Assembly: GCA_035527035.1 (NCBI GenBank)
Contig: DATLBG010000129.1
Coordinates: 6,435 to 70,434, forward strand
Length of the DNA stretch: 64,000 nt
Source: Gemmatimonadaceae bacterium
GTDB taxonomy: Bacteria > Gemmatimonadota > Gemmatimonadetes > Gemmatimonadales > Gemmatimonadaceae
Direction of reading: 5' to 3'
Under the pieces are notes generated by a model, which was not told where the DNA came from, searched no databases, and saw nothing but the letters and a program-made list of their open reading frames with translations. Numbering within the stretch: the stretch's first letter is position 1; the number at the start of each line of letters is the position of its first letter. Shown here piece after piece: positions 1-17,967 of this stretch. The translations under genes were made by a program, and so were the position numbers.

Positions 1-285
1 GAGGAAAACTTTTCCCTCCACGTGGCGCCTGGTCCATTCGCTCACGTAGGCTTCAACAGGCGCGGTGGCTGCATAAAATCGCCTGTTGGCAGCGCCTGGT
101 TTACGAGCGGGATCGTGCGCCCGGTCCAGGTCGTGGAACATGGCCTCCTCGCGTTTCCGCTCCTCCAGCTGCTCTACCCACTCGCGCCCCATGGTGGTCG
201 GCTGCGATGTCAGCCAGGACCGGAGACTCGCAATCCGATTCGCGGAGGTCGCAAGGTCAGCGGCCGCCCCGGCACCACTCGTCAT
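1..285 (-). CDS. Class I SAM-dependent methyltransferase, N-terminal part only (gene runs off the window edge)
   Basis: Manual translation of the minus strand from the ATG at 285: MTSGAGAAADLATSANRIASLRSWLTSQPTTMGREWVEQLEERKREEAMFHDLDRAHDPARKPGAANRRFYAATAPVEAYVSEWTRRHVEGKVFL. The FHD...RFY...GK-V-L layout resembles the lead-in to the GxGxG motif of polysaccharide-locus methyltransferases. ATGA overlap with the upstream GT2 stop (282-284). Not in the ORF track because it is truncated. Confidence 0.4.
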   Translation of the reverse strand, partial: MTSGAGAAADLATSANRIASLRSWLTSQPTTMGREWVEQLEERKREEAMFHDLDRAHDPARKPGAANRRFYAATAPVEAYVSEWTRRHVEGKVFL

Positions 286-2447
286 TGGCGCACCGCCGAA
301 TCCTGCACGGTCCACGCCGGATCGTCCCGGCGAACGGGCTGCCCGCCCACGAGGAGCTTGAGCACCCCTACGAGCACGCCGATCCCGTGCGTCAGGTGGT
401 ACGCGAGAAAACACGGCGGGAGGAGCAGCACGTGCGCGGGCCGCCGGTACCGGATCGCCTGCTGAACCGAAGCGACCAGAGCGAGCGCCGCGTAAACCGC
501 GAGAATCGCCGCCACGACATACGCAACCGATCGCGAGAAAAATGCGAGCGGAACTCCGAGCAACACGCCTAGCGCGAATACGGCCGTTATTGCGTGCCGG
601 GGCGTGAAGGTGTACGGCGCCAAATACCACATGTACGCGTTAAACGGAGCGTCGGCCAGGAACTGCTTCTGCAGGAATCTTCCGAGAGTGGGCTGTTGGA
701 AGTAGTCCAGCACTATTCTGGGGTCGAGCCATACCCGCCCCCCGCGAGCGCTGATGCGGCGGTTGAACTCGTAATCCTGGCCGCGCCAAAGTCGCTCGTC
801 GAAAAGCCCGAATCGCTCGAACGTCTCGCGTCGGAAGAAGCCGTAAGGAACGGTGTCCGCGGGTCCTTCCTTGGCCGTGGTTCTGAAGGAGATGCCTACG
901 CCGAACCAATGCGTGGTCAGAGCCTGCACGAGCGACGCCTCGTAGCCGGTTCCACGCGCACGCGTGAGGAACAGACCCCCCACGTTGTCGGCACCGGTGC
1001 GGAGCGACGTCTCGACGCATTTGGTCAGATAGTCGGCGGGATACGTGGAATGAGCATCGAGACGCAGCACGTATTCGCCGGTCGAGGCAGCGAGCGCGAG
1101 GTTCAATCCGGTCGACTGCGTGCGCTTTGGATTGTGCAGCAGGCGGAACCGGTTGTCATTGGCCGCAACGGCCGCAACGAGATCGCGCGTGCCGTCAGTG
1201 GAGCCCCCGTCGATCACGAGCACTTCGATGTCCCAATTCGGCGGCAGCAAGAACGATTTCACGGAGTCGAGGCAGGGAATGATGAAGTCTCGCTCCTGAT
1301 AGCAGGGGACAATCACGGAGACGAGAGAGCGCGCCGCTCCAATCAGCGCGGCGCGCGGCGCGGTTACCCGCCACCTCGCATCGGTTCTTCTGACGGGCTG
1401 AATCCCCAGCGCGATGCGCGCCAGACCGCCCAGCACGCCGACGCCATGTGTCAGGTGATAGGCCAGAAACGACAGCGGGAGCAGGAGCACGTGCGCCGGC
1501 CGGCGGTAGCGCACGGCCTGCTGCACCGAGGCCGACACCGCCAGAACCAGGTAGATCGCGAGAATTCCGCCCACGATCACAGCCAACGGTCGCGAGAGAA
1601 ACGCCAGCGGTATTCCCAGCAGGACACCCAGGGCAAACACGGCCGTCACCGCGTGCCGCGGAGTGAAAGTGTACGGCGCCAGATACCACATGTAGGCGTT
1701 GTACGGCGCGTCCTCCCGGAACTGCTTCCGGAGGAATCGCTTCAACGTCGGCTGCTGGTAATAATCCAGCTCTATCCGCGGATCGAGCCACACGTGGCCG
1801 CCACCCGCCGTGATGCGGCGGTTGAACTCATAATCCTGGCCACGCCACAAGCGCTCGTCGAACAGGCCGAATTTTCTGAAGGTTTCGCGCCTGAAAAAGC
1901 CGTACGGCACCGTATCCGCGGGACCTTCCTTCGCACCCGTGCGGAACGAGCTGCCGACGCCGAACCAGTGAGTCGTCAGCGCCTGCACCAGCGCGGCCTG
2001 ATACCCGCTGCCGCGCGCGCGCGTGACGACGAGGCCGCCCACGTTCTCCGCACTGGTCCGCAGCGAGGTCTCGACACACTTCTTCAGGTAATCGGTCGGA
2101 TACGTGGAGTGCGCATCAAGCCGGAGGACGTAGTCTCCATGCGAGTCGGCCAGCGCGAGGTTCAGCGCGGTGGACTGCGTCCGCCTGGGATTGTGCAGTA
2201 ATCGGAAGCGGGGATCCGACGCTGCGACCGTGCTCACGAGATCGCGCGTGCCGTCCGTCGAGCCGCCGTCAATCACCATCACCTCGATGTCCCAACCGGC
2301 CGGAAGCTCGAAGCGTCTGACGGACTCGAGACAGGAGATGATAAAATCCCTTTCCTGATAGCACGGAATGAGCACGGAGACGAGGGATGCCGTCCCGCCG
2401 GGGCCAGCCTCCGTGTGCGTCGCCTGCGTCAAGGGAACAGCGGTCAT
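282..2447 (-). CDS. Tandem-fused double family-2 glycosyltransferase (two complete ExoA-like GT2 plus C-terminal TM units in one ORF)
   Basis: The 735-aa ORF has two near-identical units, SLVSVLIPCYQERDFI...VIDGGSTDGT...RLDAHSTYP and SLVSVIVPCYQERDFI...VIDGGSTDGT...RLDAHSTYP. Each unit is followed by hydrophobic helices. The repeat period is 353 aa (1059 nt). Start trimmed to Met15 (2447), which gives an ATGA overlap with the upstream stop at 2444. Confidence 0.85.
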   Translation of the reverse strand: MTAVPLTQATHTEAGPGGTASLVSVLIPCYQERDFIISCLESVRRFELPAGWDIEVMVIDGGSTDGTRDLVSTVAASDPRFRLLHNPRRTQSTALNLALADSHGDYVLRLDAHSTYPTDYLKKCVETSLRTSAENVGGLVVTRARGSGYQAALVQALTTHWFGVGSSFRTGAKEGPADTVPYGFFRRETFRKFGLFDERLWRGQDYEFNRRITAGGGHVWLDPRIELDYYQQPTLKRFLRKQFREDAPYNAYMWYLAPYTFTPRHAVTAVFALGVLLGIPLAFLSRPLAVIVGGILAIYLVLAVSASVQQAVRYRRPAHVLLLPLSFLAYHLTHGVGVLGGLARIALGIQPVRRTDARWRVTAPRAALIGAARSLVSVIVPCYQERDFIIPCLDSVKSFLLPPNWDIEVLVIDGGSTDGTRDLVAAVAANDNRFRLLHNPKRTQSTGLNLALAASTGEYVLRLDAHSTYPADYLTKCVETSLRTGADNVGGLFLTRARGTGYEASLVQALTTHWFGVGISFRTTAKEGPADTVPYGFFRRETFERFGLFDERLWRGQDYEFNRRISARGGRVWLDPRIVLDYFQQPTLGRFLQKQFLADAPFNAYMWYLAPYTFTPRHAITAVFALGVLLGVPLAFFSRSVAYVVAAILAVYAALALVASVQQAIRYRRPAHVLLLPPCFLAYHLTHGIGVLVGVLKLLVGGQPVRRDDPAWTVQDSAVRQ

Positions 2448-3556
2448 CTCACGGCGACCCTCCGGTACGTCGAGGCGAGCGCATCCCACCTGCGGCGCTC
2501 CGACGGGTACGCCGAATGCGGCTTCTCCGGCCTGGCGATGTAGCGATCCAGATCATCGCTCGTCCAGCCCATTTTCTTGGTGAAGTATTTCTTGTCTTCG
2601 ACGAGCGCCTCAGCCGACGGATAGGCAATTCCCTCGGCGAGCCGCAGCGCCTCGTCTCGCGTCATCTGCCCTGACGCGACCAGCGCGCTCAGGTGAACGC
2701 GGCGTTTGTCCACTCCGAACTTCGTCGGCAGAATGAAACCCTGGTAGAAGCGCGTAAATACCGACTCGTAGTGCTTGTAGGGATACCGCTTGTAACCGTA
2801 GTCGCGCTCAAGTACGTCCAGCGCTTCGTTCTTGTTGTAGTCGAGCAGGTCGAGGAAGGAAATCCATCTGATACGCCGGACGGCCCGGTACCAAAGGTAG
2901 GCGAGTGTGCTGATCGCGGGAAAAGTCCGCAGTCGGACTCCGCCTCCCTTCCCGATCGCTTCGATGTTACGCCTGTCGAACTTCAGCCAGGTCCAGCCCG
3001 GAGGAAAGCGTATGCCCTCTGTCGCCGTATTCGATCCGGCGAGGATGTGGCGCAGGCCGCGCCTCGCGGCCTCGCGGTAATTCACCGCCAGCATGGCGTT
3101 GTCGTACAGGATCTCTACATCAATGACGTCAGCGTCGAAAAATGCCTGCATCAGCTGCCGGTACTCTTCCCAGTCGATGACGTGCGTGTGCAGGTCCACG
3201 CGAAGCCCTCGAATCAGATTGGCGATGTTGTTCTGTGCGAGCTCGGAGTTCCAGCCGTTGTCCATGTGCACGGCCAGCGGGCGGATCCCCAGCTCCACCG
3301 CCTTGGCGAGGGCCCACGAGCTGTCGATTCCGCCCGACACGCCCATGATGCAGTCATACGGCTTCCCCCGGCCCGCGGCCTTCACTTCCGCGACGAAAGC
3401 CTCGAGCCTGAGCTGCCGCTCTGCCGGATCAGTGACGTCGTGGCGCGCCGAGCTCCGCAGCACCTCCGAGCAGTAATTGCAGTTGCCGTCGCCATCGAAG
3501 GCGATGTCGGAAGCCGTCGTGTCCATGATGCAGCGACGGCAGATTCTGTAGCTCAC
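2444..3556 (-). CDS. N-acetyl sugar amidotransferase (WbuX/WbpG/PseA-type, PP-loop ATPase)
   Basis: N-terminal Cys cluster RICRRCIMDTT...DGDGNCNYC, then PP-loop-like CIMGVSGGIDSSW. Sits directly downstream of the HisH/HisF-like pair, as in acetamidino-sugar loci. Confidence 0.8.
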   Translation of the reverse strand: MSYRICRRCIMDTTASDIAFDGDGNCNYCSEVLRSSARHDVTDPAERQLRLEAFVAEVKAAGRGKPYDCIMGVSGGIDSSWALAKAVELGIRPLAVHMDNGWNSELAQNNIANLIRGLRVDLHTHVIDWEEYRQLMQAFFDADVIDVEILYDNAMLAVNYREAARRGLRHILAGSNTATEGIRFPPGWTWLKFDRRNIEAIGKGGGVRLRTFPAISTLAYLWYRAVRRIRWISFLDLLDYNKNEALDVLERDYGYKRYPYKHYESVFTRFYQGFILPTKFGVDKRRVHLSALVASGQMTRDEALRLAEGIAYPSAEALVEDKKYFTKKMGWTSDDLDRYIARPEKPHSAYPSERRRWDALASTYRRVAVR

Positions 3557-4329
3557 TGACGACCCTCTTGCGTGGCGAAGATCTGCTGCAATTCAGTCGG
3601 ATCCGGATAGGTCACGAGCACCGCGCGATGCGGGCCGTGCAGAACGAAGAAGGCGCCGGCCGCGACAGCGCTCGCTCCGGCGTCCACCGCAGCCCTTACA
3701 TCCGCCAGGCTGCCGACTCCCCCGACCGCCACCAACGGAACGGCGATCGCGTGGCTCGCCTCGCGAATCAGTTCGAGGTCGGGGCCCTCCATGGTTCCGT
3801 CGCGGTCCACGGCGTTCAGCAGTATCTCGCCGGCGCCGGCCGCTACCAGCCGCCGCACGTGGTCGAGCCAGGGACCAGGGAGGATCTTTCGCGACGCCGC
3901 GGCATAGAGCTGCATCCGGCCGAACAGCTTCCGCTTCACGTCCACGGAAGCCAGAACCGCCTGCTCGCCGAACTGCTCGGCGATTTTCGTGACCAGGGAA
4001 ACGTCATTCAGGACGGCGGTCTGGAGACACACCTTCTCGACGCCGAGCGCGAACAGCTGCCGGGCCTGCTCGACCGTCCGGATGCCTCCCCCGTAGCACA
4101 GCGGCATGAAGCACTCGCCCGCGAACTGCTCGATCAAGTCGAACTGCGGCCCGCGGCCCTCCACGGACGCCGATATGTCGAGAACCATCAGCTCGTCCGC
4201 CTCCTTCTCGTTGAATATCCGGATGGCGTTGATGGGATCGCCGACGTATTGCGGGGCGGCGAATTTTCGTGTCTTGACCAGGCCCCGCCCACGAAGCAGA
4301 AGACATGGAATGACCCGATGCTTCAGCAT
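3553..4329 (-). CDS. Imidazole glycerol phosphate synthase cyclase subunit homolog (HisF-like, WbuZ-type)
   Basis: MLKHRVIPCLLLRGRGLVKTRKF...VLDISAS...GGGIRT...AVGGVGS, a typical HisF (beta/alpha)8 signature. Lies in a polysaccharide locus, not a his operon. Confidence 0.85.
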   Translation of the reverse strand: MLKHRVIPCLLLRGRGLVKTRKFAAPQYVGDPINAIRIFNEKEADELMVLDISASVEGRGPQFDLIEQFAGECFMPLCYGGGIRTVEQARQLFALGVEKVCLQTAVLNDVSLVTKIAEQFGEQAVLASVDVKRKLFGRMQLYAAASRKILPGPWLDHVRRLVAAGAGEILLNAVDRDGTMEGPDLELIREASHAIAVPLVAVGGVGSLADVRAAVDAGASAVAAGAFFVLHGPHRAVLVTYPDPTELQQIFATQEGRQ

Positions 4330-4943
4330 TCGAGGGCGACAAAGCTCCTCATCACCGACATTCCGAACCGATGGCTTTTCTCGGGATGGAACTGCACACC
4401 ATGGATGTTCCCGCGGCTGAACGCGGCATCGAACGTTTGGCCATGGCGCGCTGTAGCCACGACATCGGAACGGTCACCGCATTCCACGAAATACGAATGC
4501 ACGAAATAAAAGCGTTGCTCGCCGTCGGGGATGAGTCCGCCGGGCTTCGTCACCGTGACCGTATTCCATCCCATGTGCGGAACCTTGATCGCCGGCACCG
4601 GCGGGACAAAGCGCTTCACCTTGCCGCCGATCCAACCCAGGCCCGCGCAGGACCCTTCCTCGCTCTCCTCGCACATGAGCTGCATCCCGAGACAGATGCC
4701 CAGGATCGGCTTCCGGCGGTGAACCACCGCCTCCCGCAAAGCGTCCGCCCACCCGCGTGACGTGAGGCTGCTCATACCCCTGTCGAACGCGCCGACTCCG
4801 GCCAGCACGATCTTGTCGGCCGTCGCGATCTCCGACGGCTCGTCCACGAGGCGCGCTGCTCCCCCGACCTTCTCGACCATTCGTATCACCGAAGCGAAGT
4901 TGCCGATCCCAAGGTTCGGAATTGCGATGGAGAGATTCGTCAC
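4323..4943 (-). CDS. Glutamine amidotransferase, HisH-like (WbuY-type)
   Basis: GNFASV...LAGVGAF...GICLGMQL...HSY...GVQFHPEKS, a class I GATase triad pattern. Start set to the GTG at 4943, giving a GTGA overlap with the GT4 stop. The longer ORF start at 5021 would overlap GT4 by about 80 nt. Confidence 0.8.
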   Translation of the reverse strand: MTNLSIAIPNLGIGNFASVIRMVEKVGGAARLVDEPSEIATADKIVLAGVGAFDRGMSSLTSRGWADALREAVVHRRKPILGICLGMQLMCEESEEGSCAGLGWIGGKVKRFVPPVPAIKVPHMGWNTVTVTKPGGLIPDGEQRFYFVHSYFVECGDRSDVVATARHGQTFDAAFSRGNIHGVQFHPEKSHRFGMSVMRSFVALEC

Positions 4944-6259
4944 GCAGCGGTCCTCGTCTTCTGGGTTATCATCTCCGCGAAAGCCGAGTAGTTGGCCGTT
5001 GCGCTGTACTCCCGTTCCCACTTCGCCCTGCTTCCGGCGCGAAGCCGGTCCAATCGCGCCCGGTCGTCCAGCAGCGACCCGACGACCGCCGAGAACTCCA
5101 CCGGGTCAGGATTCGCTGTGAGCAGCACGCCGTTCTCCGGTCCAATTATCTCCGGGTTTCCTCCGACGGCAGTAGCGATGACGGGTATCCCGGCGCTAAT
5201 GGCCTCCATCACGGCCACCGGCGTTCCCTCGCTCGCGCTGGTGTTGACGAACACATCCACGGGCTGGGCGTGATAGTACGCGAACAACCCATCCCTTCCC
5301 GGATACGGCAGGAAGCGCCATCTGATGTTGGCAGGAAGAACTGCTCGAGCCAAATCCTCCAGCGGCTCTTTCGGCCCGTCACCGATATGGGTCCAGTCGA
5401 ACGTGACGTCTGCCCTCTCACGCCCCAACCGCTCGAGGCAGCGGATGAGCAAGTCGAGTCTCTTGACCGGCACGATGAACGAGCAGCTGACGACTCGGAA
5501 AACACCGTCGGATGACGGCACACTCTGGTGCGGAGCGGCGTCGACGCCAAGTAAGGAAACCTCGATCTTGTCGCGATACGCCGGATATCGGTGGACTACG
5601 TGGCGAGCTCCGGCGTGCGACGCGGAGAACATCCCCGAGATCTGGTCGAGCGCCCGATCGCGGAACGGGATGTAGGGGGGATCGTGCCGCCCCTCGTATA
5701 GATCCACTCCGTGAGCTCTCGTTATTACGGGGACGCCGGCCTTCAGCCGGTAAGACGAGAGACCCAGAGTCGTCGCGTCGAACCACCACGTGTAACACAG
5801 CCACCGGCCAAGCTGATCGGCGTGGTCCCGCGCGAAAGAGCGGATCCAACGCTCGGTTAGCCGCGCGTGCACGTTGTATCGCGCGGCTCTGGCCAGGGCC
5901 GCGGGGTGCCGGAAGAACATCTCACGATGCGCCACGATCTCGCGCCACAGGCGCAGGTCGAAAAGAGTCAACGGTGCCCATAACGCGCGACGGACGCGCG
6001 ACTGGACAAACCGCGAGTATCCGGTGTTGACCGCGATGCCGGGCGTGCGCACATCGTCGAGGTCGCCTTTCGCCAATTGCGGAATGAGGAATATCTTTCC
6101 GAAATAACGCGCGAGGACTTTCAGCTCCTGCTCGAGAAACGTCCTTTCGCCCGTCGCCGAGTACGGGTACGACCCGGTAAAGATCAAAAGCGTGTCCACA
6201 CGCTCGAGCGCCCCACCCGCCTGACGCGGGCGCTCAGTTCTGGTCGAGCGGACGATCAC
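4940..6259 (-). CDS. Glycosyltransferase family 4 (GT-B, GT1-type)
   Basis: C-terminal GT-B motif FVNTSASEGTPVAVMEAISAGIPVIATAVGGNPEII. The start is uncertain: 6259, or the GTG near 6199. Confidence 0.75.
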   Translation of the reverse strand: MIVRSTRTERPRQAGGALERVDTLLIFTGSYPYSATGERTFLEQELKVLARYFGKIFLIPQLAKGDLDDVRTPGIAVNTGYSRFVQSRVRRALWAPLTLFDLRLWREIVAHREMFFRHPAALARAARYNVHARLTERWIRSFARDHADQLGRWLCYTWWFDATTLGLSSYRLKAGVPVITRAHGVDLYEGRHDPPYIPFRDRALDQISGMFSASHAGARHVVHRYPAYRDKIEVSLLGVDAAPHQSVPSSDGVFRVVSCSFIVPVKRLDLLIRCLERLGRERADVTFDWTHIGDGPKEPLEDLARAVLPANIRWRFLPYPGRDGLFAYYHAQPVDVFVNTSASEGTPVAVMEAISAGIPVIATAVGGNPEIIGPENGVLLTANPDPVEFSAVVGSLLDDRARLDRLRAGSRAKWEREYSATANYSAFAEMITQKTRTAA

Positions 6260-6267
6260 AGAGAGAC

Positions 6268-7140
6268 ATGGTGAAACGCCTGGTTAAGTCGGTGCTGATG
6301 TGGCCCGTACGCCTGCTTCGGCGACGCCGGGCAAGAACAACGCTCGCAACGCTCGGCGCGGCCAACTCCGCCGCTCTGCGTGCCGTTGCCGCCGCGATCC
6401 GCGAGGCGCTGGACGGCACCGCGTCTCCCGAGGAGCGCGCCTCGATCGATCGCATAGAGGAGCGTCGGCGCGAGCTGCTCGAGTCGGGCGCGACGATTCC
6501 CGTTATCGATTACGGTGCCGGGAGCGACCCGCGGGTGAAGCGCACCGCCGAGCAGATGCGCGCCGGCGTGGCCACGTCGGCAGCGGTGCGCACCCTCGCA
6601 AGGGCGAGCAAGAGTCCCGCGTCGGCGTTTCTGATCTTCAAGCTGGTCCGGCACCTCGCGCCCAGCTCCTGCATAGAGCTCGGCTCCTGCGTCGGAATTT
6701 CGGCGTCGTATCAGGCAGCGGCGCTGACCTTCAACGGCGGCGGCACTATAAGAACGCTGGAAGGCGCCCCGGCAATCGCGTCGATAGCGCGCGAGACGCT
6801 CGCGCGTATGGCCGTTGCCAACGCATCCGTCGTGGAAGGCCCCTTTCATGAGACGCTCAGTGCAGCTCTGCAAGCCGGCGCGCCCGTCGATTTTCTGTTC
6901 AACGACGGTCACCACAGCGGCGATGCCATGCTGTGTTACTTTCGCGAGTCGCTGGCCTACCTCGCGCCGGAAGCAGTGCTGTTGTTCGACGACATCAACT
7001 GGTCGCTCGATACTCAGACCGCTTGGCGGGAGATCGCACGCCACGACCGCGTAGCGGCCAGCATCGATCTGGGGGAGATGGGGCTGTTGATCGTGTCCAG
7101 CAGATCGACCCTTCGACAGGAGCTGCGCGTCCCGCTCTAA
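6268..7140 (+). CDS. Class I SAM-dependent methyltransferase (O-methyltransferase/Methyltransf_24-like)
   Basis: CIELGSCVGISASY...IRTLEG...DFLFNDGHHSGDAM...LLFDDINW. It is the only plus-strand gene inside the minus-strand sugar operon. Confidence 0.65.
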   Translation: MVKRLVKSVLMWPVRLLRRRRARTTLATLGAANSAALRAVAAAIREALDGTASPEERASIDRIEERRRELLESGATIPVIDYGAGSDPRVKRTAEQMRAGVATSAAVRTLARASKSPASAFLIFKLVRHLAPSSCIELGSCVGISASYQAAALTFNGGGTIRTLEGAPAIASIARETLARMAVANASVVEGPFHETLSAALQAGAPVDFLFNDGHHSGDAMLCYFRESLAYLAPEAVLLFDDINWSLDTQTAWREIARHDRVAASIDLGEMGLLIVSSRSTLRQELRVPL

Positions 7141-8313: not shown

Positions 8314-10254
8314 ATGACACCTGCGCGTGCCGCAAGTATTCCATACCGACGTTTACACCTTCGGAATCGGCATCTCTTTGCCAGCGATCTCGTCAGTCTC
8401 GTTCTGGCTTCCCTGCTCGCATTCCTTGTCAGATTCGAACAGCTCCAATGGCTCTCGGCTAATAGCTGGCTGATAGCAGCGTACATCGGCATCGCCGTGC
8501 CGCTGCGCCTCGGACTGTTTCACGCGCTCGGCCTCTACAGGCGGCTTTGGCGCCATGCCAGCGTCGGGGAGCTACGCACGCTGGTGCTGGCCGGATTCGC
8601 CGGTGGCGTCATATGCGCGGTCGTCGGGATCTTCCTGCTTCCCTCGTTCGGCATCACCTCGAGCCGCGTCCCGATCTCCGTGGTTTTTATGGACGCCATG
8701 CTCGCCTGCGGCCTGGTCGCGCTGCCGCGGCTGCTCGCGCGCGCAGGCCGTTGGGGGCACCCGCAACGGCGGAGCGAGGACCACGCGAAGCGAACGCTGA
8801 TAGCGGGCGCAGGAACTTCCGGGAAGCAGGTCGCGAAAGAGCTGTGCAGAAACAGCCGCCTCGGCATGATGCCGGTCGGGTTCGTTGACGACGACCGGGC
8901 GAAGCATGGCCACATGCTGTACGATCTCCCCGTGCTGGGCTCGCTGGCCGACATAAGAAAGCTGGTCCCCATGCATGACATCGCCGAGATCGTCATCGCG
9001 ATGCCGTCGGCTTCAGGAACCGTCGTGCGCCAGGTGGTGCGAGCAGCGCTGGACACCGGGATTTCTACCCTGACCGTCCCAAGCCTGCCGGAGATCATCT
9101 CGCAAAAGGGTGGCGGTGCGTCCCTTCGCGAGGTGGAGATTCAGGACCTTCTGCGTCGTGAGCTGGTCGAGACGGACATGGCCTCGGTTGCCGCGCTGGC
9201 CACGGGCGAGACGGTGCTGATTACGGGCGCCGGCGGCTCGATCGGCAGCGAGCTCTGCCGCCAACTGGGAAGGCTGGCGCCCACCCGGCTCATCGTGCTC
9301 GGCCACGGCGAAAATTCCATCTTCGATGTGTACCACGAGCTCCGCGAAAGTTTCCCCCACGTGGAGATCGTTCCCGTCATCGCGGACGTCCGCGATCGCG
9401 ACCGGATGCTGAAGGTGCTCGCGCTGCACCGGCCTCACGCAGTCTTCCACGCCGCGGCCCATAAGCACGTCCCGCTCATGGAAGACAACGTGGTCGAAGC
9501 GGTCACCAACAACGTCACTGGAACGCGCAATACCGTAGACGCAGCGCTGGCAGCCGGTGTCTCCCGGTTCGTATTTATCTCCACGGACAAGGCCGTGCGG
9601 CCCACAAGCGTCATGGGCGCGTCCAAGCGTATTGCCGAGCAGATCGTCCAGCACGCGGCAACCAAGCACGATCAAAACTTCGTGTCAGTGCGGTTCGGCA
9701 ATGTGCTTGGAAGCCGTGGCAGCGTCGTGCCGAGCTTCATGCGCCAGATCCGCGCGGGCGGACCGGTGACGGTGACGCACCCCGAGATGCAGCGCTTCTT
9801 CATGACGATCCCGGAGGCCGTCCAGCTCGTCCTCCAGGCAGGAGCCCTCGGCCGCGGCGGCGAAGTGTTCGTGCTCGACATGGGCGAGCCAGTGAAAGTG
9901 GTCGATCTCGCCACGGACCTCATACGGCTGTCGGGCCTGGAGCCGGGACAGGATATCAAGATTCAGTTCACCGGAATTCGCCCCGGGGAGAAGCTGTACG
10001 AGGAGATGTTTTTCAGCGCGGAAAACGTGATTCCCACCGATCACCCGAAGGTGCTTCGAGCGCGCAACGGCCTGCTTGCCGAGGGCACCATGAGGAAAAT
10101 CGAGGCGCTCGCGAAGGGGGCGGTCGCTGGCAGGGAGGATGACGAGCTTCGGGCGCTGCTGCGTGAGCTGGTGCCGGATTTCCAACCGCACGATCCGCCG
10201 ACCCGACGCGACGCCGCGGCGACGGATCGGGAGTTTATCGCCTCGATCGCTTAG
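8314..10254 (+). CDS. Membrane-anchored polysaccharide biosynthesis protein CapD/WbpM/PglF family (nucleotide-sugar 4,6-dehydratase)
   Basis: N-terminal TM helices, then a first Rossmann segment LIAGAGTSGKQV and an SDR-extended domain VLITGAGGSIGSEL...STDKAV...ASKR. Confidence 0.85.
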   Translation: MTPARAASIPYRRLHLRNRHLFASDLVSLVLASLLAFLVRFEQLQWLSANSWLIAAYIGIAVPLRLGLFHALGLYRRLWRHASVGELRTLVLAGFAGGVICAVVGIFLLPSFGITSSRVPISVVFMDAMLACGLVALPRLLARAGRWGHPQRRSEDHAKRTLIAGAGTSGKQVAKELCRNSRLGMMPVGFVDDDRAKHGHMLYDLPVLGSLADIRKLVPMHDIAEIVIAMPSASGTVVRQVVRAALDTGISTLTVPSLPEIISQKGGGASLREVEIQDLLRRELVETDMASVAALATGETVLITGAGGSIGSELCRQLGRLAPTRLIVLGHGENSIFDVYHELRESFPHVEIVPVIADVRDRDRMLKVLALHRPHAVFHAAAHKHVPLMEDNVVEAVTNNVTGTRNTVDAALAAGVSRFVFISTDKAVRPTSVMGASKRIAEQIVQHAATKHDQNFVSVRFGNVLGSRGSVVPSFMRQIRAGGPVTVTHPEMQRFFMTIPEAVQLVLQAGALGRGGEVFVLDMGEPVKVVDLATDLIRLSGLEPGQDIKIQFTGIRPGEKLYEEMFFSAENVIPTDHPKVLRARNGLLAEGTMRKIEALAKGAVAGREDDELRALLRELVPDFQPHDPPTRRDAAATDREFIASIA

Positions 10255-10263
10255 CCGCTCCGT

Positions 10264-11601
10264 TCACCAGACGTCCGCCGCCCCGCTTACGGCAAGGCCC
10301 TGGCTACGCAGCTTGGCAACAAGCCCGCGGCCGACGCGCGCCCTCAGGACCAGCTCTTCGCCGTCGTGGGTCTGCTCGACCACCTCCCCTTCGCGATGCA
10401 CTTCCGCAAGCAGCCGGCCGTCGCTTGCCGGCATGCGGATCTCCACGATCGGCCTCTGTCTGCGAAGGCATCCGAGCAGCGATCTCCTGAGCGGCTCGAG
10501 CCCGTTCTCGGCCCAGGCTGAGACGAATACCGCGCTCGGCATTTCCTCGCGCACCCGGTCCTGCAGCGCCACCAGCTCCTCGGGTGTCAGCTGGTCAATC
10601 TTGTTGAACACGTGGATAACCGGCTTGTCGTGAGCCTCGATCTCTACCAGCACCTCGTTCACAACAGCAAGCTGCTCCTCCCACTGCGGATGGTTCGCAT
10701 CGATCACGTGCAGCAGCTGGTCGGCCTCCCGCACTTCAGAAAGTGTCGCGCGGAACGAGGCAACCAGGTCGTGCGGGAGCTTCCGGATGAACCCCACGGT
10801 ATCGGTCAGTACCACCGGGTAGTTCTCGCCGATGTCCACGTCACGGGTGAGCGGGTCCAGCGTCGCGAACAGCCGGTCTTCGACGAAGACATCGGGTGAC
10901 CCCGACAGCCCCCGCAGAACAGAAGACTTTCCGGCGTTGGTGTAGCCGACGAGGCTGGCGCGGAACGTGTCGCGTCTGCCGGAGCGCTGCACTTCGCGCG
11001 TCCGCTCGACTTCCTCGAGCCGCTGTCGAAGCGTCTTGATCCGCTGGTTGATGAGCCGGCGATCCGTCTCGAGCTGTGTCTCACCCGGCCCCCGCATGCC
11101 GATGCCGCCCTTGAACCGCTCGAGGTGGGCCCACATCCGCGTGAGTCGCGGTAGCATGTATTGGAGCTGCGCCAGCTCGACCTGGAGTTTGGCTTCGTTA
11201 GAGCGCGCCCGCGTCGCGAAGATGTCGAGAATGAGCTCTGCCCGGTCCATCACGCGGCGACCCGTCGCGTCCTCGACGTTCTTTCCCTGAGCCGGCGTCA
11301 GCTCGTCGTCGAACACGATGAGCGTGGCGCCGCTCTCCGTCACGCGGTGCGTCAGCTCCTGGATCTTCCCCTTGCCGAGGTACGTCGCTGGGTTGGGCCG
11401 GTCGAGCTGCTGCGTCAGCGTGCCGACCACCTTACCGCCGGCGGTATCAACGAGCTGCTCGAGCTCCTCGAGGTGCTCGTCCATCGTTCGGCCACGAGCC
11501 CCCGCGGAAACCCCCGCACCGCCCGACCGCTTGAGCGGGGCGCCGACTAGCAGCACTCGCTCCGTCGGCGACGACAGCTCGATCAGATCGCGCGCCATCA
11601 A
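10264..11601 (-). CDS. hflX: GTPase HflX
   Basis: HflX N-domain, then G motifs LVGYTNAGKSSVL, FATLDP, DTVGFI and NKID. Confidence 0.9.
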   Translation of the reverse strand: MMARDLIELSSPTERVLLVGAPLKRSGGAGVSAGARGRTMDEHLEELEQLVDTAGGKVVGTLTQQLDRPNPATYLGKGKIQELTHRVTESGATLIVFDDELTPAQGKNVEDATGRRVMDRAELILDIFATRARSNEAKLQVELAQLQYMLPRLTRMWAHLERFKGGIGMRGPGETQLETDRRLINQRIKTLRQRLEEVERTREVQRSGRRDTFRASLVGYTNAGKSSVLRGLSGSPDVFVEDRLFATLDPLTRDVDIGENYPVVLTDTVGFIRKLPHDLVASFRATLSEVREADQLLHVIDANHPQWEEQLAVVNEVLVEIEAHDKPVIHVFNKIDQLTPEELVALQDRVREEMPSAVFVSAWAENGLEPLRRSLLGCLRRQRPIVEIRMPASDGRLLAEVHREGEVVEQTHDGEELVLRARVGRGLVAKLRSQGLAVSGAADVW

Positions 11602-11880
11602 GAGCCCCGCGGGCTGACGATGTGCGACCGCGTCCTAGCGAACGCGTAGGACGTATATTTGTTGAGCGCGTACGGCGTTAAAACTGTATGCGCTTGCAGA
11701 AGGTACGACATTAGCTTCGCCGCCTATGTGCCGCTCTGGCCCCGTGCTGAAACTCGTACGTGTCAGTTACCCCCGACACCGCTCCAACCGCCGTCGCGAT
11801 CCCAGTTTTGACTTGTCGCTCGAGGATACATCGATCGACTCCCCTTCCGGCCGCCCGGCATCAATGACGATCTCCAACTA

Positions 11881-13113
11881 GTGGCGGGCCTTGGAAGCGC
11901 GGAATCTACGCGCGTGAGCCACCCGGTCATCAATTGGGCTTCCATCGACAGGATTAAGGTTGGTGCCGAGGCCTCGATTTGCATAAAGGTATCACCGGAA
12001 CTGATAGCGGCGACGGCCGGGGTCACGGGCGATTTCAATCCGCTGCACGTCGATGCGGATGCGGCCCTCATGCTAGGACACTCGCGCCCGGTGGCGCACG
12101 GAGTCGTTCTGCTCGGCGTAATCTCCCGTTTGATCGGGATGCAGCTCCCGGGGCCCGGCTCCGTCTGGTTTGCGAACGAGGTGGAATTCCTCGCCCCCGT
12201 TCATCCAGGAGATGAAGTTGAGATTCGGGCAAAAGTTGTCCGCGTGTCCGCGGCCTCAAATGTTGTCGTGCTCGAGCTCAGCGGCCGCCGCCTGCCTAAC
12301 ACCGAAGTTCTCCGCGGCACCGCGAAGGTGCGAGTGCCCAGCATGATCTTTCATCGGGACGCAAACATGGATGATTCTCAGAAAGTTGCGCTGGTAAGCG
12401 GTGCGAGCAGAGGCGTCGGCCGCGCAATCGCGACGGCACTGGCCGCGGACGGCATTGCGGTGGCGGTCAACTACCGAAACGACTCCGGCGGCGCCGATGA
12501 GACCGTGGCTCAGATCAAGAGCGCCGGCGGCCAAGCCGTTGCAATACGAGGTGACGTCGCCCGAGCCGAGGGTGCCAAGGAAGCGTACGAGGGCACCATG
12601 AAGGAATTCGGACGAATAGACATCATCGTCCACAATGCGACCCCTCCGATCGAGGGGCGCGCCTACCTCGAAACGACTTCTGCGCAGTTTCGGGAATTCT
12701 TCGACACGTACGTTGTTGGACTGCACGAGCTCGTGCTCCTGGCCGCGCCGCAGATGCGTGAGCGCAAAGCCGGCCGCATCATCGCGCTGCTGTCGTCGTT
12801 CATCGCGGAAGTTCCGCCGAAGTTCTCCGCGTACATCACCGGCAAGCACGCGCTGGAAGGGTTCTGCCGATCGCTCGCCGTCGAGCTCGGGCCGTCCGGG
12901 ATCACGGTTAACGCCGTGTCGCCATCGGTTCTCATCGGTCCGACGACCGACGACATCGGAATCATCGGTCGCGAGGTGATCGCCAGAAAGACTCCGCTGC
13001 GCCGCATCGGCCACCCTGACGACGTCGCGAAGATCGTTGTCTTCCTGGCCGGGAACGACGCGAGCTTTATCTCGGGAGCCAACGTTCCCGTGTCGGGCGG
13101 AATTCTCTTTTAG
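11881..13113 (+). CDS. Fusion of a MaoC-like (R)-hydratase/dehydratase hot-dog domain and an SDR (FabG-like) reductase
   Basis: N-terminal half has VTGDFNPLHVDADAA...HG (MaoC signature). C-terminal half has ALVSGASRGVGRAIA...NAT...YITGKHA...SGGIL (classical SDR TGxxxGxG and YxxxK). GTG start as given by the ORF track. Confidence 0.8.
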   Translation: MAGLGSAESTRVSHPVINWASIDRIKVGAEASICIKVSPELIAATAGVTGDFNPLHVDADAALMLGHSRPVAHGVVLLGVISRLIGMQLPGPGSVWFANEVEFLAPVHPGDEVEIRAKVVRVSAASNVVVLELSGRRLPNTEVLRGTAKVRVPSMIFHRDANMDDSQKVALVSGASRGVGRAIATALAADGIAVAVNYRNDSGGADETVAQIKSAGGQAVAIRGDVARAEGAKEAYEGTMKEFGRIDIIVHNATPPIEGRAYLETTSAQFREFFDTYVVGLHELVLLAAPQMRERKAGRIIALLSSFIAEVPPKFSAYITGKHALEGFCRSLAVELGPSGITVNAVSPSVLIGPTTDDIGIIGREVIARKTPLRRIGHPDDVAKIVVFLAGNDASFISGANVPVSGGILF

Positions 13114-13149
13114 CGCTTGCAAGCGATACGACACGCCGGCCCTGGCTCC

Positions 13150-13398
13150 TCAGGTCGGCGAGCCCCCGCCCATGCGATTCTCCACAACCCGACCGACCAG
13201 CCCCACGGACAGCATGTTGTTCACGTCGTCGTCCGACAGCGTGATACCGAACTCGCTTTCGAGCGCGAGCACCAGGTTCACATGCGACAACGAATCCCAG
13301 GCGTCGATGGTGTCCGGACCGTCCTCGTCCGACAGCGAATCGACCGGCGTGCCGAATGCAGAGGAGAGAATCTTGTAAACGCGCTCTTTAGTCGTCAG
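13150..13398 (-). CDS. Acyl carrier protein
   Basis: ERVYKILSSAFGTPVDSLSDEDGPDTIDAWDSLSHVNLVLALESEFGI contains the DSLS phosphopantetheine-attachment motif in a helix-bundle-sized protein. The start is uncertain. The tracked ORF reaches 13497, but that would overlap the FkbH gene. The CTG at 13398 or the ATG at 13461 are alternatives. Confidence 0.7.
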   Translation of the reverse strand: MTTKERVYKILSSAFGTPVDSLSDEDGPDTIDAWDSLSHVNLVLALESEFGITLSDDDVNNMLSVGLVGRVVENRMGGGSPT

Positions 13399-15205
13399 GG
13401 TCGTACTCCAGTGTGAGTTCGATGTGATCCGGCCGCTGCGGGCCGTCCTTGGCGAGATCATACACCCACAGGGCGCCGGAGTCATCCATGCTCGCAAAAC
13501 CGTGGTCGCGGTAAACGGTTCGGGCCGGCTCGTTGCGCGGCGTGTGAATGAACTCGCCCATCAGGCGTCGGCCACCCGATCTTCGGGCCAGCCTCGCGGT
13601 CTCGTGCAGTAGCACTGACTCGGCACCGCGCCCGATCACCCGGCAGCTCAAAAGTAGCACGTCGAGGAGCCAATCGCCCGGGTTGGACGTCGGCACGGCG
13701 ATCGCTACGCCGACAAGTCCGGAGTCTCCGAACCGGTCGCTCACACGAATCCACAACCCAATGCCTCCCCGCGCAAGCAGTCCCTCGATTTCCGCTTGAC
13801 TGTACCTCCGAGTGGTTGTGTTGAATTGGTTCGTCTTTCCAATGAGTTGTGTAACCCGCGGAAGCGTATCGCCACCAATCGTCCCGATGCGCACCTTGAT
13901 CCCCAAGTCCCGAAGGAAGGCGTCGGATGACGGCAGCTCCTCCCTCAGGCGCTTTCGCTTCGTCTCATCGCGGTACATGCTCGCCCGCTTCTGGTCCTCG
14001 GGGGAGATCTGCAGGCTATCGAAGGCCTCCGAATTCTCAAGCGCTTCGATATAGGCCAGAGGATCCGCCGGCACGTCGATGACCAATGTTTCAGGAAGCT
14101 GGGTTCGGACCCACTCGCGCTCCACGGCGCTGTCGTCGAAGAAAGCGACCGCGTCAAGCCCGATTGACAAGTCGCGGGCGATGTTCCGAATCGAGGTCGC
14201 CTTGTCCCCCCAACCGATCTCGACCGCGGAAAATAGATCCGGCCGCAGGAGACAATCAGGATGCTCGGCCAGCGCGCGAATGGCGTCGTCACGATCGTTC
14301 TTGCTTGACACGGCAAGCAGGACGCCCCGATCCCGTAACCCTACGAGGTGCTGCTGAAACGAGCGAAAGATGGTTCCCGGATGATCGTGTCCCATCCTGA
14401 TACCACCGAAACCATCTTCGCCGAGTACGCCACCCCACAGAGTATTGTCGAGGTCCACGACGAGACATTTCCGCGCGGGCCGAAGGAGTGCAGCGATGTA
14501 GCGTGCCACGAGGGCCCCGATTCCTGCGAGCCCTTCGCTCCCGAATGGCAGCCGCGCCCGCAGCCACATGCGGCGATCCCTGATCCGGTCCGCGCCGCGT
14601 CGAGCCACGAACCCGGCAAAGTCCACGACATGGCAATCGGAAACTCCACGCACCGCGTAGGCCAGCTTCGCGTTGAGCTCCGCGACCGCGGACGCCTGCG
14701 ACGGATCGAGAACGGGCGCTGCCAGTCCGCCCGCCGAGCCGTCGATAACCGCGAAGTTCAAAATGAATATTGCGGCGCTGGTGCGGCTCCGTAGGCCTTC
14801 GACGAGCTCCCTTGCACGGACAGTCACCGCGTCAATCTCCGCAGCAACCTCCTCCTGCCTCAGCGCCGCAAACCGGTAACAGAGGGATTCGCTCAGGTCC
14901 TCCAGGAGCGCCGCAATAACGATGACCTCCGGCTGACCGGAAAAAAGCTCGCTACGCTCATTGAATGCCTGTAACTCAAGCTGGTTGAAGGGCGCGAATG
15001 CCGGTATTACCCGGAGGTCTCGGGCGGCGCCTTCCACGATGAGGTACGGTGCGAGCGGCGCAGCGGTGAAAGTGGAGAGCACCGCGACCCGTAAGACCTC
15101 GCTTGACGCGTCCGCGTCGGCCCCGAGCGTTCTGGCCAGCTCCAACACCGCGCCCACGTCGCCCCTCGCTGCTCGAGCCTTATCCCGCAGCGACCCGCTA
15201 GCCAT
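13388..15205 (-). CDS. FkbH-like HAD-superfamily IIIC protein with a C-terminal GNAT-like domain
   Basis: Central LVVDLDNTLWGGVLGEDG (HAD-IIIC/FkbH motif I), SSKN, and a C-terminal acyltransferase-like fold ...LLLSCRVIGRGAES. Immediately upstream of the ACP gene. Confidence 0.75.
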   Translation of the reverse strand: MASGSLRDKARAARGDVGAVLELARTLGADADASSEVLRVAVLSTFTAAPLAPYLIVEGAARDLRVIPAFAPFNQLELQAFNERSELFSGQPEVIVIAALLEDLSESLCYRFAALRQEEVAAEIDAVTVRARELVEGLRSRTSAAIFILNFAVIDGSAGGLAAPVLDPSQASAVAELNAKLAYAVRGVSDCHVVDFAGFVARRGADRIRDRRMWLRARLPFGSEGLAGIGALVARYIAALLRPARKCLVVDLDNTLWGGVLGEDGFGGIRMGHDHPGTIFRSFQQHLVGLRDRGVLLAVSSKNDRDDAIRALAEHPDCLLRPDLFSAVEIGWGDKATSIRNIARDLSIGLDAVAFFDDSAVEREWVRTQLPETLVIDVPADPLAYIEALENSEAFDSLQISPEDQKRASMYRDETKRKRLREELPSSDAFLRDLGIKVRIGTIGGDTLPRVTQLIGKTNQFNTTTRRYSQAEIEGLLARGGIGLWIRVSDRFGDSGLVGVAIAVPTSNPGDWLLDVLLLSCRVIGRGAESVLLHETARLARRSGGRRLMGEFIHTPRNEPARTVYRDHGFASMDDSGALWVYDLAKDGPQRPDHIELTLEYDPDD

Positions 15206-15803
15206 GTCTCGGCCTGGCCTTCATCTCACGCCACTCGTGAACCAGCAGCCCCCACCTATACCCGTCGACGTACGCGTCCCCGAGTCGCATAGCCTCGCGC
15301 AGCCGCCCTTCCAGAGTGAAACCGGTTTTTCGAAAGGTAAAGTTCATTCCCATGTTCTTCGCTGAGCTCCCCCCGGTGATGCGTCGCAACCCCAGCCGCT
15401 CAAAGGCGAACTCCGTGAGAAGCGCGATGGCCTCCTCGGACGCACCCGTCCCCCAGTAATCCTTCTCTCCGATCAGCAGGCCGAACTCGGCTGAACCGTT
15501 GTAGCGATGGATATCGTACAGCGTACAAGTTCCGATGGACTCGCCGGCAGCGCGGGGGACTATCGCCCACATGTATTTCTCCACGGGGCCCTCGAACGAT
15601 TCCACGAACGCCGTGACTGTGTCCCGCGACTGCGGCTGATATCGGGGACGGTCGAGGAAGCGAACGATCTCGGGGTCGCACAGCCAGGAGATGTAGCGGT
15701 CGTTGATCATCGCCTTGTCAAACGGGACAAGCGACAGAGTGGGGCCGTCTAGCCGCTCGCGATTGTTGTCAGTGCTTGACATGCTATAGGATAAAGACTT
15801 CAC
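15198..15803 (-). CDS. GNAT-family N-acyltransferase (RimJ/RimL-like)
   Basis: FGLLIGEKDYWGTGASEEAIALLTEFAFERLGLRRI...N, GNAT motif A. 8-nt overlap with the FkbH-like gene. The start is the GTG at 15803 or the ATG at 15782. Confidence 0.75.
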   Translation of the reverse strand: MKSLSYSMSSTDNNRERLDGPTLSLVPFDKAMINDRYISWLCDPEIVRFLDRPRYQPQSRDTVTAFVESFEGPVEKYMWAIVPRAAGESIGTCTLYDIHRYNGSAEFGLLIGEKDYWGTGASEEAIALLTEFAFERLGLRRITGGSSAKNMGMNFTFRKTGFTLEGRLREAMRLGDAYVDGYRWGLLVHEWREMKARPRHG

Positions 15804-15961
15804 CGCTTCGCGGGCAATCGGCGCCGTTGACGTGAACGCAAGCTCACAACGACGTCTGCCGTCCGAAGAGAGGCCAGACGGTGACTTGATCGCCGCGCGC
15901 CCTCTCGAGCAGAGCTCCCTCAGACCGCCGATGCGTTGCCTCTATAAAGACAACGCCTAGG

Positions 15962-16446
15962 CTACTGCCTGCTCGCGCCGCCGAAGGCGGAAAACCTGCC
16001 GTGGCCGGTGTACGGGCGCGTGAAGCTGCCGATCGGGGTCGCGACCGTCACGTCGCCCGTCACGGTGTACGGCACCGATCCGCTCTGCATCATCTGCCGC
16101 GCGGCCGAGCCGATTCCAGAGTACGTGAAGTCGATCGGAATCCGCACCTCGGTGGAGTCGCCGCGCTGCACTGTGAAGCGCGAGTCCAGCGCGCCCAAGC
16201 CGACCTGCGTCTCGCCGACGAGCAGACGGTATGTCAAGCGCGTCGCGTCGAGCCTGAACTGGTTCGGGTTATAGACGTTGAGATACACGTCGAGCGAGCC
16301 GCCGCTCAACCCGAGGCCGCGCACTCGCAGATCCTTGAAGTTGACGACCGGCTCCTGAAAGATCCCGCGTCCGAGACTGGCGCACGCGCTCACCGCTACC
16401 AGCGCGAACAGCGCGAATATCGCAACCGCAAACTTTGACCTGCGCA

Positions 16447-16450
<4 letters not shown>
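15962..16450 (-). CDS. LEA type-2 (WHy/NDR1-HIN1-like) family lipoprotein
   Basis: Signal peptide plus lipobox (LVAVSAC), then VNFKDLRVRGLGLSGGSLDVYLNVYNPNQF...L.YRL, typical of LEA_2. Confidence 0.65.

Positions 16451-17967
<1,517 letters not shown>

Follow-up and report, generated by a model that had tools for sequence, protein, structure and literature searches.

The 64-kb stretch of DNA analysed here (hereafter the window), which comes from a Gemmatimonadaceae bacterium and has a high GC content of about 65%, carries a compact group of four genes centred on an acyl carrier protein (ACP). Genes were assigned from a listing of open reading frames (ORFs) together with profile searches against Pfam and NCBIfam, and all coordinates refer to the whole window. 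Three of the genes form a minus-strand trio encoding a Gcn5-related N-acetyltransferase (GNAT), a three-domain FkbH-like loader and the ACP. This trio faces a convergent gene in which a MaoC-type dehydratase is fused to a short-chain dehydrogenase/reductase (SDR). An earlier note, made by reading the same sequence, had described just such an arrangement, and all four genes lie where it had placed them (Table 1). The GNAT and FkbH-like genes overlap by 8 nt, and the overlap between the FkbH-like and ACP genes is 11 nt with CTG 13398 as the ACP start or 74 nt with ATG 13461. The convergent stop codons of the ACP and MaoC-SDR genes are 36 bp apart, and the upstream intergenic region of the fusion gene measures 279 bp. 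Profile searches detect no ketosynthase (KS), acyltransferase (AT) or adenylating enzyme between 8 and 20 kb of the window, in agreement with the absence that the earlier note had reported.

FkbH enzymes turn 1,3-bisphosphoglycerate into glyceryl-ACP (PMC7489565, PMC3679948). The loader in the window belongs to the FkbH domain family by every feature that can be read from its sequence, and the loading of a glyceryl unit is predicted for it. Specifically, the protein passes the TIGR01686 FkbH domain model with 278.3 bits (cutoff 146.65) and the TIGR01681 model for haloacid dehalogenase (HAD) subfamily IIIC with 62.1 bits (cutoff 35.75). An N-terminal domain that matches Pfam FkbH_N at 35 bits is followed by the HAD-IIIC phosphatase and then by a GNAT-fold C-terminal domain carrying Cys521. 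The HAD motifs are complete (D251-L-D253-N-T255, S301, K335 and D357-D358). In an alignment of 46 homologues, D251, D253, T255, S301-K302-N303, K335, D357-D358, TNQF at 458-461 and S520-C521-R522 are invariant. Indeed, C521, which lies in an SCRV motif just ahead of the GNAT R-x-x-G-x-G/A loop, is the only invariant Cys and, by analogy with OzmB, is probably the acyl-enzyme nucleophile.

The same residues are found in an FkbH protein encoded on a Streptomyces plasmid (L167), where a KSIII gene directly before the FkbH-like gene, followed by ACP and phosphopantetheinyl transferase (PPTase) genes, makes up the canonical tetronate arrangement. Loss of the catalytic Asp or Cys residues, which the earlier note had named as fatal to its proposal, is therefore not seen: D251, D253 and C521 are kept in the 46 homologues and in this tetronate-context protein. 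The invariance of the HAD phosphatase residues, held in common with tetronate FkbH, argues for a phosphorylated substrate. An AlphaFold (AF2) model of the loader has a predicted local distance difference test score (pLDDT) of 91.7. Foldseek aligns this model with PDB 3slr, which represents the N-terminal region of B. fragilis BF1531, at a template modelling (TM) score of 0.81 over the N-terminal and phosphatase domains, and the same entry is matched by sequence (E 2.6e-42). The HAD domain also resembles MDP-1. Residues from about 430 to 600 match many GNAT folds, and thus the acyltransferase-like C-domain that the earlier note had read into the sequence is real.

The ACP gene adjoins the FkbH-like gene and overlaps its stop codon. 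Its product aligns over the full length with the ACPs of 83-85 aa encoded in three related loci described below (L081, L083 and L085), and the serine motif WDSLSH is kept. The PP-binding model scores 19.7 bits, just below the Pfam cutoff of 20.8, and NCBIfam ACP models reach an E value of 2e-8 while remaining under their cutoffs. Thus, the profile assignments that the earlier note had listed as a check are borne out for FkbH, HAD-IIIC, MaoC, SDR (adh_short_C2) and GNAT, but the ACP falls short of its threshold. A GGAG sequence lies 8 nt upstream of the probable CTG start, which yields a protein of 82 aa; ATG 13461 is the alternative. An automatic gene caller missed the ACP on an identical Logan contig (SRR8554898).

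The GNAT matches Acetyltransf_3 with an E value of 2.8e-21, and its probable start at ATG 15782 agrees both with a 194-aa call on the identical Logan contig and with the homologue alignment. Its closest PDB sequences are the AAC(6') entry 6erd and TTHA1799, and it is 55% identical to the GNAT of the L083 cassette and 53% identical to that in the L081 locus. An assignment to PseH was rejected because the TIGR03585 model gives 19.5 bits (cutoff 93.1). We propose that the protein is an acyl-ACP-dependent N-acyltransferase. GNAT-fold enzymes that use acyl-ACP donors exist, as exemplified by acyl-homoserine lactone synthases and N-acyl amino acid synthases.

In the fusion protein, Pfam MaoC_dehydratas covers residues 31-126 (E 3.8e-17) and adh_short_C2 covers residues 174-408 (E 3.5e-51). 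The hydratase-2 motif, defined as G-D-x-N-P-[LIV]-H-x5-[AS] with catalytic Asp and His residues, is present as GDFNPLH-VDADA-A and is conserved among fusion homologues. The SDR motifs SGASRGVG, NYR (with its Arg after beta-2) and YxxxK (here Y-I-T-G-K) are likewise conserved. The YxxxK motif together with the NADPH-type Arg identifies a ketoreductase-type SDR rather than an enoyl reductase of the FabI or FabL type, and the cofactor is probably NADPH. In the PDB, its closest counterparts are FabG and glucose 1-dehydrogenase. No FabG equivalog model was passed (best 157-159 bits against cutoffs of 222-298), and the acetoacetyl-CoA reductase model TIGR01829, at 134 bits, is also under its cutoff. 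GTG 11914 is a possible alternative start. We propose that this protein is a tailoring enzyme for an ACP-bound C3 acyl group.

The relationships among these genes are best seen in their conservation. A protein search with the FkbH-like query yields 2821 relatives at E <= 1e-10, and the closest match in a collection of species-representative genomes is 47% identical. A genome scan with the same query returned 80 loci whose neighbours were checked by tblastn. These loci come from Acidobacteriota, Planctomycetota, Verrucomicrobiota, Gemmatimonadota, Nitrospirota, Chloroflexota, Proteobacteria and Firmicutes, and about 30 of the 80 are from Thorarchaeota/Promethearchaeota. At least 62 of the 80 loci have an ACP next to the FkbH-like gene, and 19, which span several phyla, have the MaoC-SDR fusion next to it.

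Closer relatives (46-56% identity) were available with precomputed gene calls, and the key loci among them (L083, L085, the P0004 contig and L081) were judged from these calls together with tblastn. On three unrelated metagenome contigs (L083, L085 and P0004), genes for an Acetyltransf_3-type GNAT, FkbH, ACP and MaoC/SDR are co-directional and overlapping, and two of the three contigs carry nonulosonic-acid clusters. Recurrence of all four genes on contigs that are not related to one another puts the grouping far outside what chance would produce. In L081, the order is SDR, FkbH, ACP, MaoC/SDR, SDR, two left-handed beta-helix (LbH) transferases and a CMP-sugar synthetase, with a GNAT gene 6.5 kb upstream. 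The MaoC-SDR gene in the window is inverted relative to the common co-directional cassette, and its convergent layout is seen again in L088.

A reverse search with the fusion as the query returned 80 metagenome loci, 45 of them with a detectable MaoC-SDR fusion. An FkbH-like gene lies within 3 kb of the fusion in 27 of these 45, or 27 of the 33 that are informative. Six more have an ACP at the contig end and six are on contigs too short to judge. The remainder consist of three loci with sequence on one side only and three with at least 2.5 kb on both sides, all without FkbH or ACP. The alternative raised in the earlier note, namely that synteny might reveal the fusion gene to be unrelated to the trio, thus finds no support in either direction of search. 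Some soil-metagenome loci (L110-L151, for example L116, L126 and L144) present a variant in which the fusion follows a shorter FkbH-like match and an ACP; about 330-400 aa of this short FkbH-like protein are matched, at 29-31% identity.

The surroundings of related loci repeatedly concern glycans. Across 87 FkbH-like loci, the FkbH-ACP pair lies beside GNAT, LbH or membrane-bound O-acyltransferase (MBOAT) genes in glycan settings. What these loci have in common would be a donor-making pair of FkbH and ACP, which always has some acyltransferase for a partner and to which a MaoC-SDR fusion is added as an option for tailoring. Around cassettes elsewhere are genes for NeuB, DegT, PseB-like proteins, CMP-synthetase and PIG-L. 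In L083, the cassette is preceded by genes for an aminotransferase, a GNAT, NeuB, an ATP-grasp protein, an epimerase and a PIG-L deacetylase. In L085, a PseB-like dehydratase, DegT, CMP-synthetase, a GFO oxidoreductase and a second DegT come before it, with PIG-L at the edge. The Bryobacterales locus L035 looks like a legionaminic-acid-type cluster with the cassette among Leg-type genes: DegT, CapD-like, NeuB, MaoC/SDR, FkbH, ACP and a 376-aa weakly GNAT-like protein are followed by further sugar genes, specifically those for a deacetylase, a NeuC-like epimerase and CMP-synthetase, and the cluster closes with a D-2-hydroxyacid dehydrogenase (13966-14943). Among the genes scanned in L035, no conventional PglD/LegH-type N-acetyltransferase is annotated. 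A homologue of the CapD-like dehydratase of the window, 53-54% identical, shares a cluster with FkbH, ACP and MaoC/SDR in L035 and in a second Bryobacterales locus, L038; in L035, the 53% identity is to the C-terminal domain of the window protein. Directly after the cassette of L083 (11223-14267) lie genes for adenylylsulfate (APS) kinase, ATP sulfurylase and a pyruvate kinase homologue. These genes, like the D-2-hydroxyacid dehydrogenase of L035, may relate to C3-acid chemistry or to glycan sulfation.

More distant loci combine the same pair with other partners. In Nitrospira (L048-L079, for example L068 7030-11600), an LbH acyltransferase, FkbH, a 510-aa MaoC/SDR protein with an extra insert and an ACP run on into a Wzt-like ATPase and ABC-2 permeases that form a Wzm/Wzt-type exporter. 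About 30 loci from metagenome-assembled genomes of Thorarchaeota/Promethearchaeota (L004-L041) have a conserved PPTase, FkbH and ACP set without the MaoC-SDR fusion, and an LbH acyltransferase and a polysaccharide deacetylase are encoded on the opposite strand. Archaea generally make little use of ACPs. In Alcaligenaceae/Achromobacter (L062 6749-12101, and L067), the genes encode an AlgX-like SGNH protein, FkbH, ACP, MBOAT and a glyoxalase/VOC protein. This arrangement looks like extracytoplasmic O-acylation of the Dlt or alginate type with FkbH in place of the adenylating enzyme, and it suggests O-glyceroylation of an exopolysaccharide.

From the gene content, conserved residues, folds and synteny of the cassette, we infer its substrate, each chemical step, its product and its acceptor. 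The FkbH-like protein would take D-1,3-bisphosphoglycerate from glycolysis and form a thioester on Cys521. As the conserved residues suggest, its HAD domain would then strip the 3-phosphate, and the D-glyceryl unit would be handed to the phosphopantetheine arm of the ACP, a series of reactions that is established for FkbH enzymes. The MaoC domain might dehydrate glyceryl-ACP at C2-C3 to give 2-hydroxyacryloyl-ACP, which would tautomerise to pyruvoyl-ACP, and the fused NADPH-type ketoreductase could reduce the 2-oxo group to yield lactyl-ACP. Finally, the gene context is consistent with the translationally coupled GNAT moving the acyl group from the ACP to the free amine of a nucleotide-activated amino sugar. 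Most probably this acceptor would be a 4-amino-4,6-dideoxy-N-acetylhexosamine (HexNAc) formed downstream of the PglF-like dehydratase, that is, a precursor of bacillosamine or of a nonulosonic acid. Because the cassette includes no enzyme that forms C-C bonds, the acyl unit should stay C3. Stated generally, that a glycerate-derived acyl-ACP is tailored and passed to a glycan seems to us quite likely. We lean, by a smaller measure, towards the specific view that the cassette carries out ACP-dependent donor synthesis and the attachment of an unusual N-acyl group to one of the amino sugars in a surface glycan, whereas lactyl as the exact product has somewhat less than an even chance.

Several known systems share parts of this scheme. 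The glyceryl-S-ACP synthases of polyketide pathways (FkbH/FkbJ of FK520, OzmB/OzmE, Tmn16, RkE, Mad7/Mad8 and Mad14/Mad12) have the same FkbH domain, with HAD-IIIC motifs, an invariant Cys in a GNAT-fold domain and a small ACP directly downstream (PMC7489565). Unlike these systems, the window has no polyketide synthase (PKS), and its loader is found in a glycan context with a GNAT and a MaoC-SDR fusion for partners. Three identities drawn from polyketide biosynthesis were considered and rejected. For the methoxymalonyl-ACP pathway (FkbG-K; PMC7489565), no FkbK-, FkbI- or FkbG-like gene occurs between 8 and 20 kb. For a tetronate cassette, a FabH-like KSIII is expected beside FkbH and ACP, and no KS of any type is near. 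For a trans-AT PKS loading module, the window proteins are discrete, the dehydratase is of the MaoC type and there is no KS.

Loading modules of this last kind, which produce a lactate or glycerate starter, nevertheless offer a mechanistic parallel. In trans-AT PKS modules with the order dehydratase (DH), ketoreductase (KR), FkbH and ACP, the same activities surround one carrier, and the same route from glyceryl through pyruvoyl to lactyl has been proposed. The bryostatin protein BryA is a precedent for an FkbH loading module. OocJ comprises a loading module with the order DH, methyltransferase (MT), FkbH and ACP (PMC4552970), and the BiGMeC rule for trans-AT PKSs has FkbH convert 1,3-bisphosphoglycerate and ACP to D-lactate-ACP (PMC7901079). 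In contrast to the PKS modules, which have a PKS DH domain and a KS as recipient, the cassette has a MaoC/hydratase-2 hot-dog domain and an N-acyltransferase as recipient. By this analogy, the cassette would work like a free-standing FkbH/DH/KR lactate-starter module whose output is turned to the N-acylation of a sugar.

A second precedent comes from nonulosonic acids. The gene cj1302, which encodes an FkbH domain, resides in the flagellin glycosylation locus of C. jejuni (PMC7099621), and di-O-methylglyceroyl-pseudaminic acid is found in C. jejuni 11168 (PMC3068675), the strain whose locus holds cj1302. N-glyceroyl-pseudaminic acid occurs in Tannerella forsythia, where in 2017 the genes responsible for it were described as unknown and as a major challenge (PMC5378307). 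As in the loci described above, an FkbH-domain gene is present in a nonulosonic-acid locus, and here glycerate-derived N-acyl groups are known on the sugar. However, the products of C. jejuni and T. forsythia keep both hydroxyls (methylated in C. jejuni), and no dehydration or reduction is expected there, unlike in the cassette. The function of cj1302 is not shown in the literature searched. N-(R)-lactoyl-pseudaminic acid was reported in 2020 from the Psychrobacter marincola capsule as the first such finding (PMC7281560), and N-lactoyl perosamine of V. cholerae O144/O76 is mentioned there by citation. The earlier note knew of no characterised example with this gene set, a statement that has to be narrowed given the trans-AT PKS loading modules and cj1302 as related precedents.

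The tailoring and transfer enzymes also have recognizable counterparts. Peroxisomal multifunctional enzyme type 2, and the PhaJ plus FabG/PhaB pair of polyhydroxyalkanoate (PHA) metabolism, belong to the same families, combining a MaoC (R)-hydratase with a classical SDR for reactions on 3-hydroxyacyl or 3-oxoacyl thioesters. The fusion in the window differs from multifunctional enzyme type 2 in its reversed domain order. Moreover, its family is tied genetically to FkbH-ACP rather than to genes for beta-oxidation or PHA, and its substrate would be a 2,3-dihydroxy C3 acyl-ACP. PseH, PglD and LegH occupy the same pathway position as that proposed for the GNAT, namely N-acylation of a 4-amino-4,6-dideoxy-HexNAc, and PseH is also a RimL-type GNAT. 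These three enzymes use acetyl-CoA, whereas the donor for the GNAT in the window would be an acyl-ACP.

Several observations weigh against the interpretation that we favor. FabG-like SDRs normally act on 3-oxo rather than 2-oxo groups, and we know of no MaoC hydratase that uses 2,3-dihydroxyacyl thioesters. The failure of the GNAT to reach the PseH cutoff also counts here, as do the ACP gene, in which the place that homologues would predict for the start offers no ATG, GTG or TTG, and the roughly six of 33 informative fusion loci that have no FkbH-like gene nearby. In the window itself, a gene for HflX sits between the cassette and the polysaccharide locus, and no aminotransferase, NeuB or other nonulosonic-acid gene is present among the annotated ORFs. 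The suggestion of the earlier note that the acyl group is delivered to an amino sugar is supported by context, since elsewhere the cassette lies within nonulosonic-acid clusters (L083, L085 and L035); its picture of the neighbouring polysaccharide locus needs the small correction that HflX separates the two.

Four other explanations were weighed. The same loader and transfer steps could be combined with a different tailoring reaction in which the SDR serves, like FkbK, as a dehydrogenase acting on the C3 or C2 hydroxyl. Products would then include 2-hydroxy-3-oxopropanoyl, hydroxypyruvoyl or, with other enzymes, hydroxymalonyl-type groups; or pyruvoyl might itself be transferred, or transaminated to alanyl. 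An oxidative role has a model in multifunctional enzyme type 2, whose SDR domain oxidises a 3-hydroxyacyl thioester, and the extra SDRs in L081, the 2-hydroxyacid dehydrogenase in L035 and the second DegT aminotransferase in L085 would fit such chemistry. We nonetheless consider this variant unlikely: the conserved Arg of the NYR motif points to NADPH and a reductive role, an oxidative route gives the intact and conserved MaoC domain no obvious job, and neither an FkbI-like acyl-CoA dehydrogenase nor an FkbG-like methyltransferase occurs between 8 and 20 kb. Still less probable, in our estimation, is a scheme in which the GNAT-fold domain of the FkbH-like protein shifts a CoA-bound acyl group to the ACP. 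In that scheme, the fusion, viewed as PhaJ-like plus PhaB/FabG-like, would supply (R)-3-hydroxybutyryl from crotonyl or acetoacetyl thioesters for an N-(3-hydroxybutanoyl) decoration. The reactions of both domain families do meet at (R)-3-hydroxyacyl thioesters, such sugars frequently bear 3-hydroxybutanoyl as their N-acyl group, and the acetoacetyl-CoA reductase model scores 134 bits, though below its cutoff. However, the HAD phosphatase residues are invariant in the 46 homologues and in the tetronate-context FkbH, the FkbH domain model is passed at almost twice its cutoff, and no thiolase or KS is present in the gene-called cassette loci (L081, L083, L085, the P0004 contig and L035).

Two further explanations question the context rather than the chemistry. 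Here the cassette might have nothing to do with glycans and might instead make a small metabolite of the N-acyl amine or amino-acid type, or modify a lipid or protein, its adjacency to polysaccharide genes being incidental. The intervening HflX gene and the housekeeping genes on the other side fit this possibility, as does the fact that, among solved structures, those closest to the GNAT are acetyltransferases for aminoglycosides, ribosomal proteins and spermidine. In addition, many of the loci that join the fusion to a short FkbH (L110-L151) have contexts in which no match was found to any of the 17 reference proteins used. Yet the orthologous GNAT, together with the cassette, is found inside NeuB and PseB/DegT clusters elsewhere, and in L035 and L038 the homologue of the CapD-like protein belongs to the same cluster as the cassette, so that we regard a non-glycan role as distinctly improbable. 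Least credible of all is that the MaoC-SDR gene belongs to fatty-acid or PHA metabolism and is convergent with the trio by accident. Its opposite strand and separate upstream intergenic region would permit this, but the synteny recovered in both search directions and the repeat of the convergent layout in L088 contradict it.

If the reading of the cassette as a source of N-acyl donors is extended to its relatives, then FkbH-ACP pairs would represent a widespread and uncharacterised diversion of 1,3-bisphosphoglycerate into the acyl groups of surface glycans, in many phyla and in Asgard archaea. The MaoC-SDR fusion would serve as a converter of glyceryl to lactyl, such that cassettes like that in the window provide the basis for N-lactoyl groups, forms lacking the fusion provide N-glyceroyl groups, and the MBOAT-linked form possibly provides O-glyceroyl groups. 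We advance this generalization tentatively, with rather less than even confidence. The pair reaches Nitrospira, Acidobacteriota, Planctomycetota and Thorarchaeota, with the loci of the last lacking MaoC-SDR.

N-glyceroyl, di-O-methylglyceroyl and N-lactoyl groups are known on pseudaminic and legionaminic acids and on perosamine, in flagellins, S-layers, capsules and O-antigens. Their genetic basis, in the literature searched, is called unknown or is not addressed (PMC5378307, PMC3068675, PMC7281560). A literature search that was not exhaustive retrieved no work on what an FkbH-like gene does in glycan biosynthesis, the only mention being that of cj1302, and found neither a description of this cassette nor an account of the genetics of N-lactoyl or N-glyceroyl sugars. 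Should the proposal be correct, glycan structure could be predicted from genes, with FkbH-ACP alone indicating glyceroyl and the addition of MaoC-SDR indicating lactoyl. The cassette would also offer a compact enzymatic source of lactyl- or glyceryl-ACP donors, and it would demonstrate that the FkbH/DH/KR logic of polyketide assembly has been reused as free-standing proteins in glycobiology.

Table 1. Positions of the cassette genes and of the neighbouring glycan-related features in the 64-kb window.
Feature	Position	Strand	Remarks
N-terminus of probable S-adenosylmethionine (SAM)-dependent methyltransferase	1-281	-	Cut by left window edge
Tandem GT2, GT4, complete acetamidino triad	282-7044	-	Upstream polysaccharide locus
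Acetamidino triad WbuX, AglZ/HisF2, HisH	2444..5021	-	Adjoining polysaccharide locus
CapD/PglF/WbpM-like UDP-GlcNAc 4,6-dehydratase	8314..10254	+	646 aa; membrane-anchored; Polysacc_synt_2 E 3.2e-120
MaoC-SDR fusion	11881..13113	+	410 aa
ACP	13150..13398	-	About 82 aa; probable CTG start 13398
FkbH-like loader	13388..15205	-	605 aa, three domains
GNAT (Acetyltransf_3, RimL/AAC(6')-like)	15198..15803	-	Probable start ATG 15782, 194 aa

The wider neighbourhood of the cassette combines glycan genes on one side with housekeeping functions on the other. Between 8 and 20 kb, its neighbours encode the CapD/PglF-like dehydratase, HflX, a LEA_2 lipoprotein, RarA, a ZIP transporter and the CCA-adding enzyme. 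The annotated genes from 20 to 64 kb are mostly of a housekeeping nature and include those for AlaRS, RecA, FtsK, AccC, LptD, TatC and a TolB-like protein. The CapD/PglF-like protein is below the cutoffs of the PseB and FnlA models, and, to judge from its context, it probably opens the pathway to the amino-sugar acceptor. At positions 11500-16600, predicted promoters and terminators were no more numerous than in shuffled sequence, and scans of the window for Rfam families and tRNAs returned no matches.

Within the polysaccharide locus, the acetamidino triad is well supported by its profile scores (WbuX, TIGR03573, 239 bits; AglZ/HisF2, NF038364, 342 bits; HisH, TIGR01855, 206 bits). A MarR-type regulator of exopolysaccharide (EPS) and the CapD/PglF-like dehydratase come after the acetamidino and glycosyltransferase (GT) genes. 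An ORF of 262 aa in this locus (6256-7044, minus strand) has no Pfam or NCBIfam match. Because the methyltransferase N-terminus runs past the left edge, the polysaccharide locus continues outside the window. The triad suggests that the glycan probably carries an N-acetimidoyl sugar besides a C3 N-acyl group, a combination that resembles the 5Am7Gra pattern of Tannerella pseudaminic acid.

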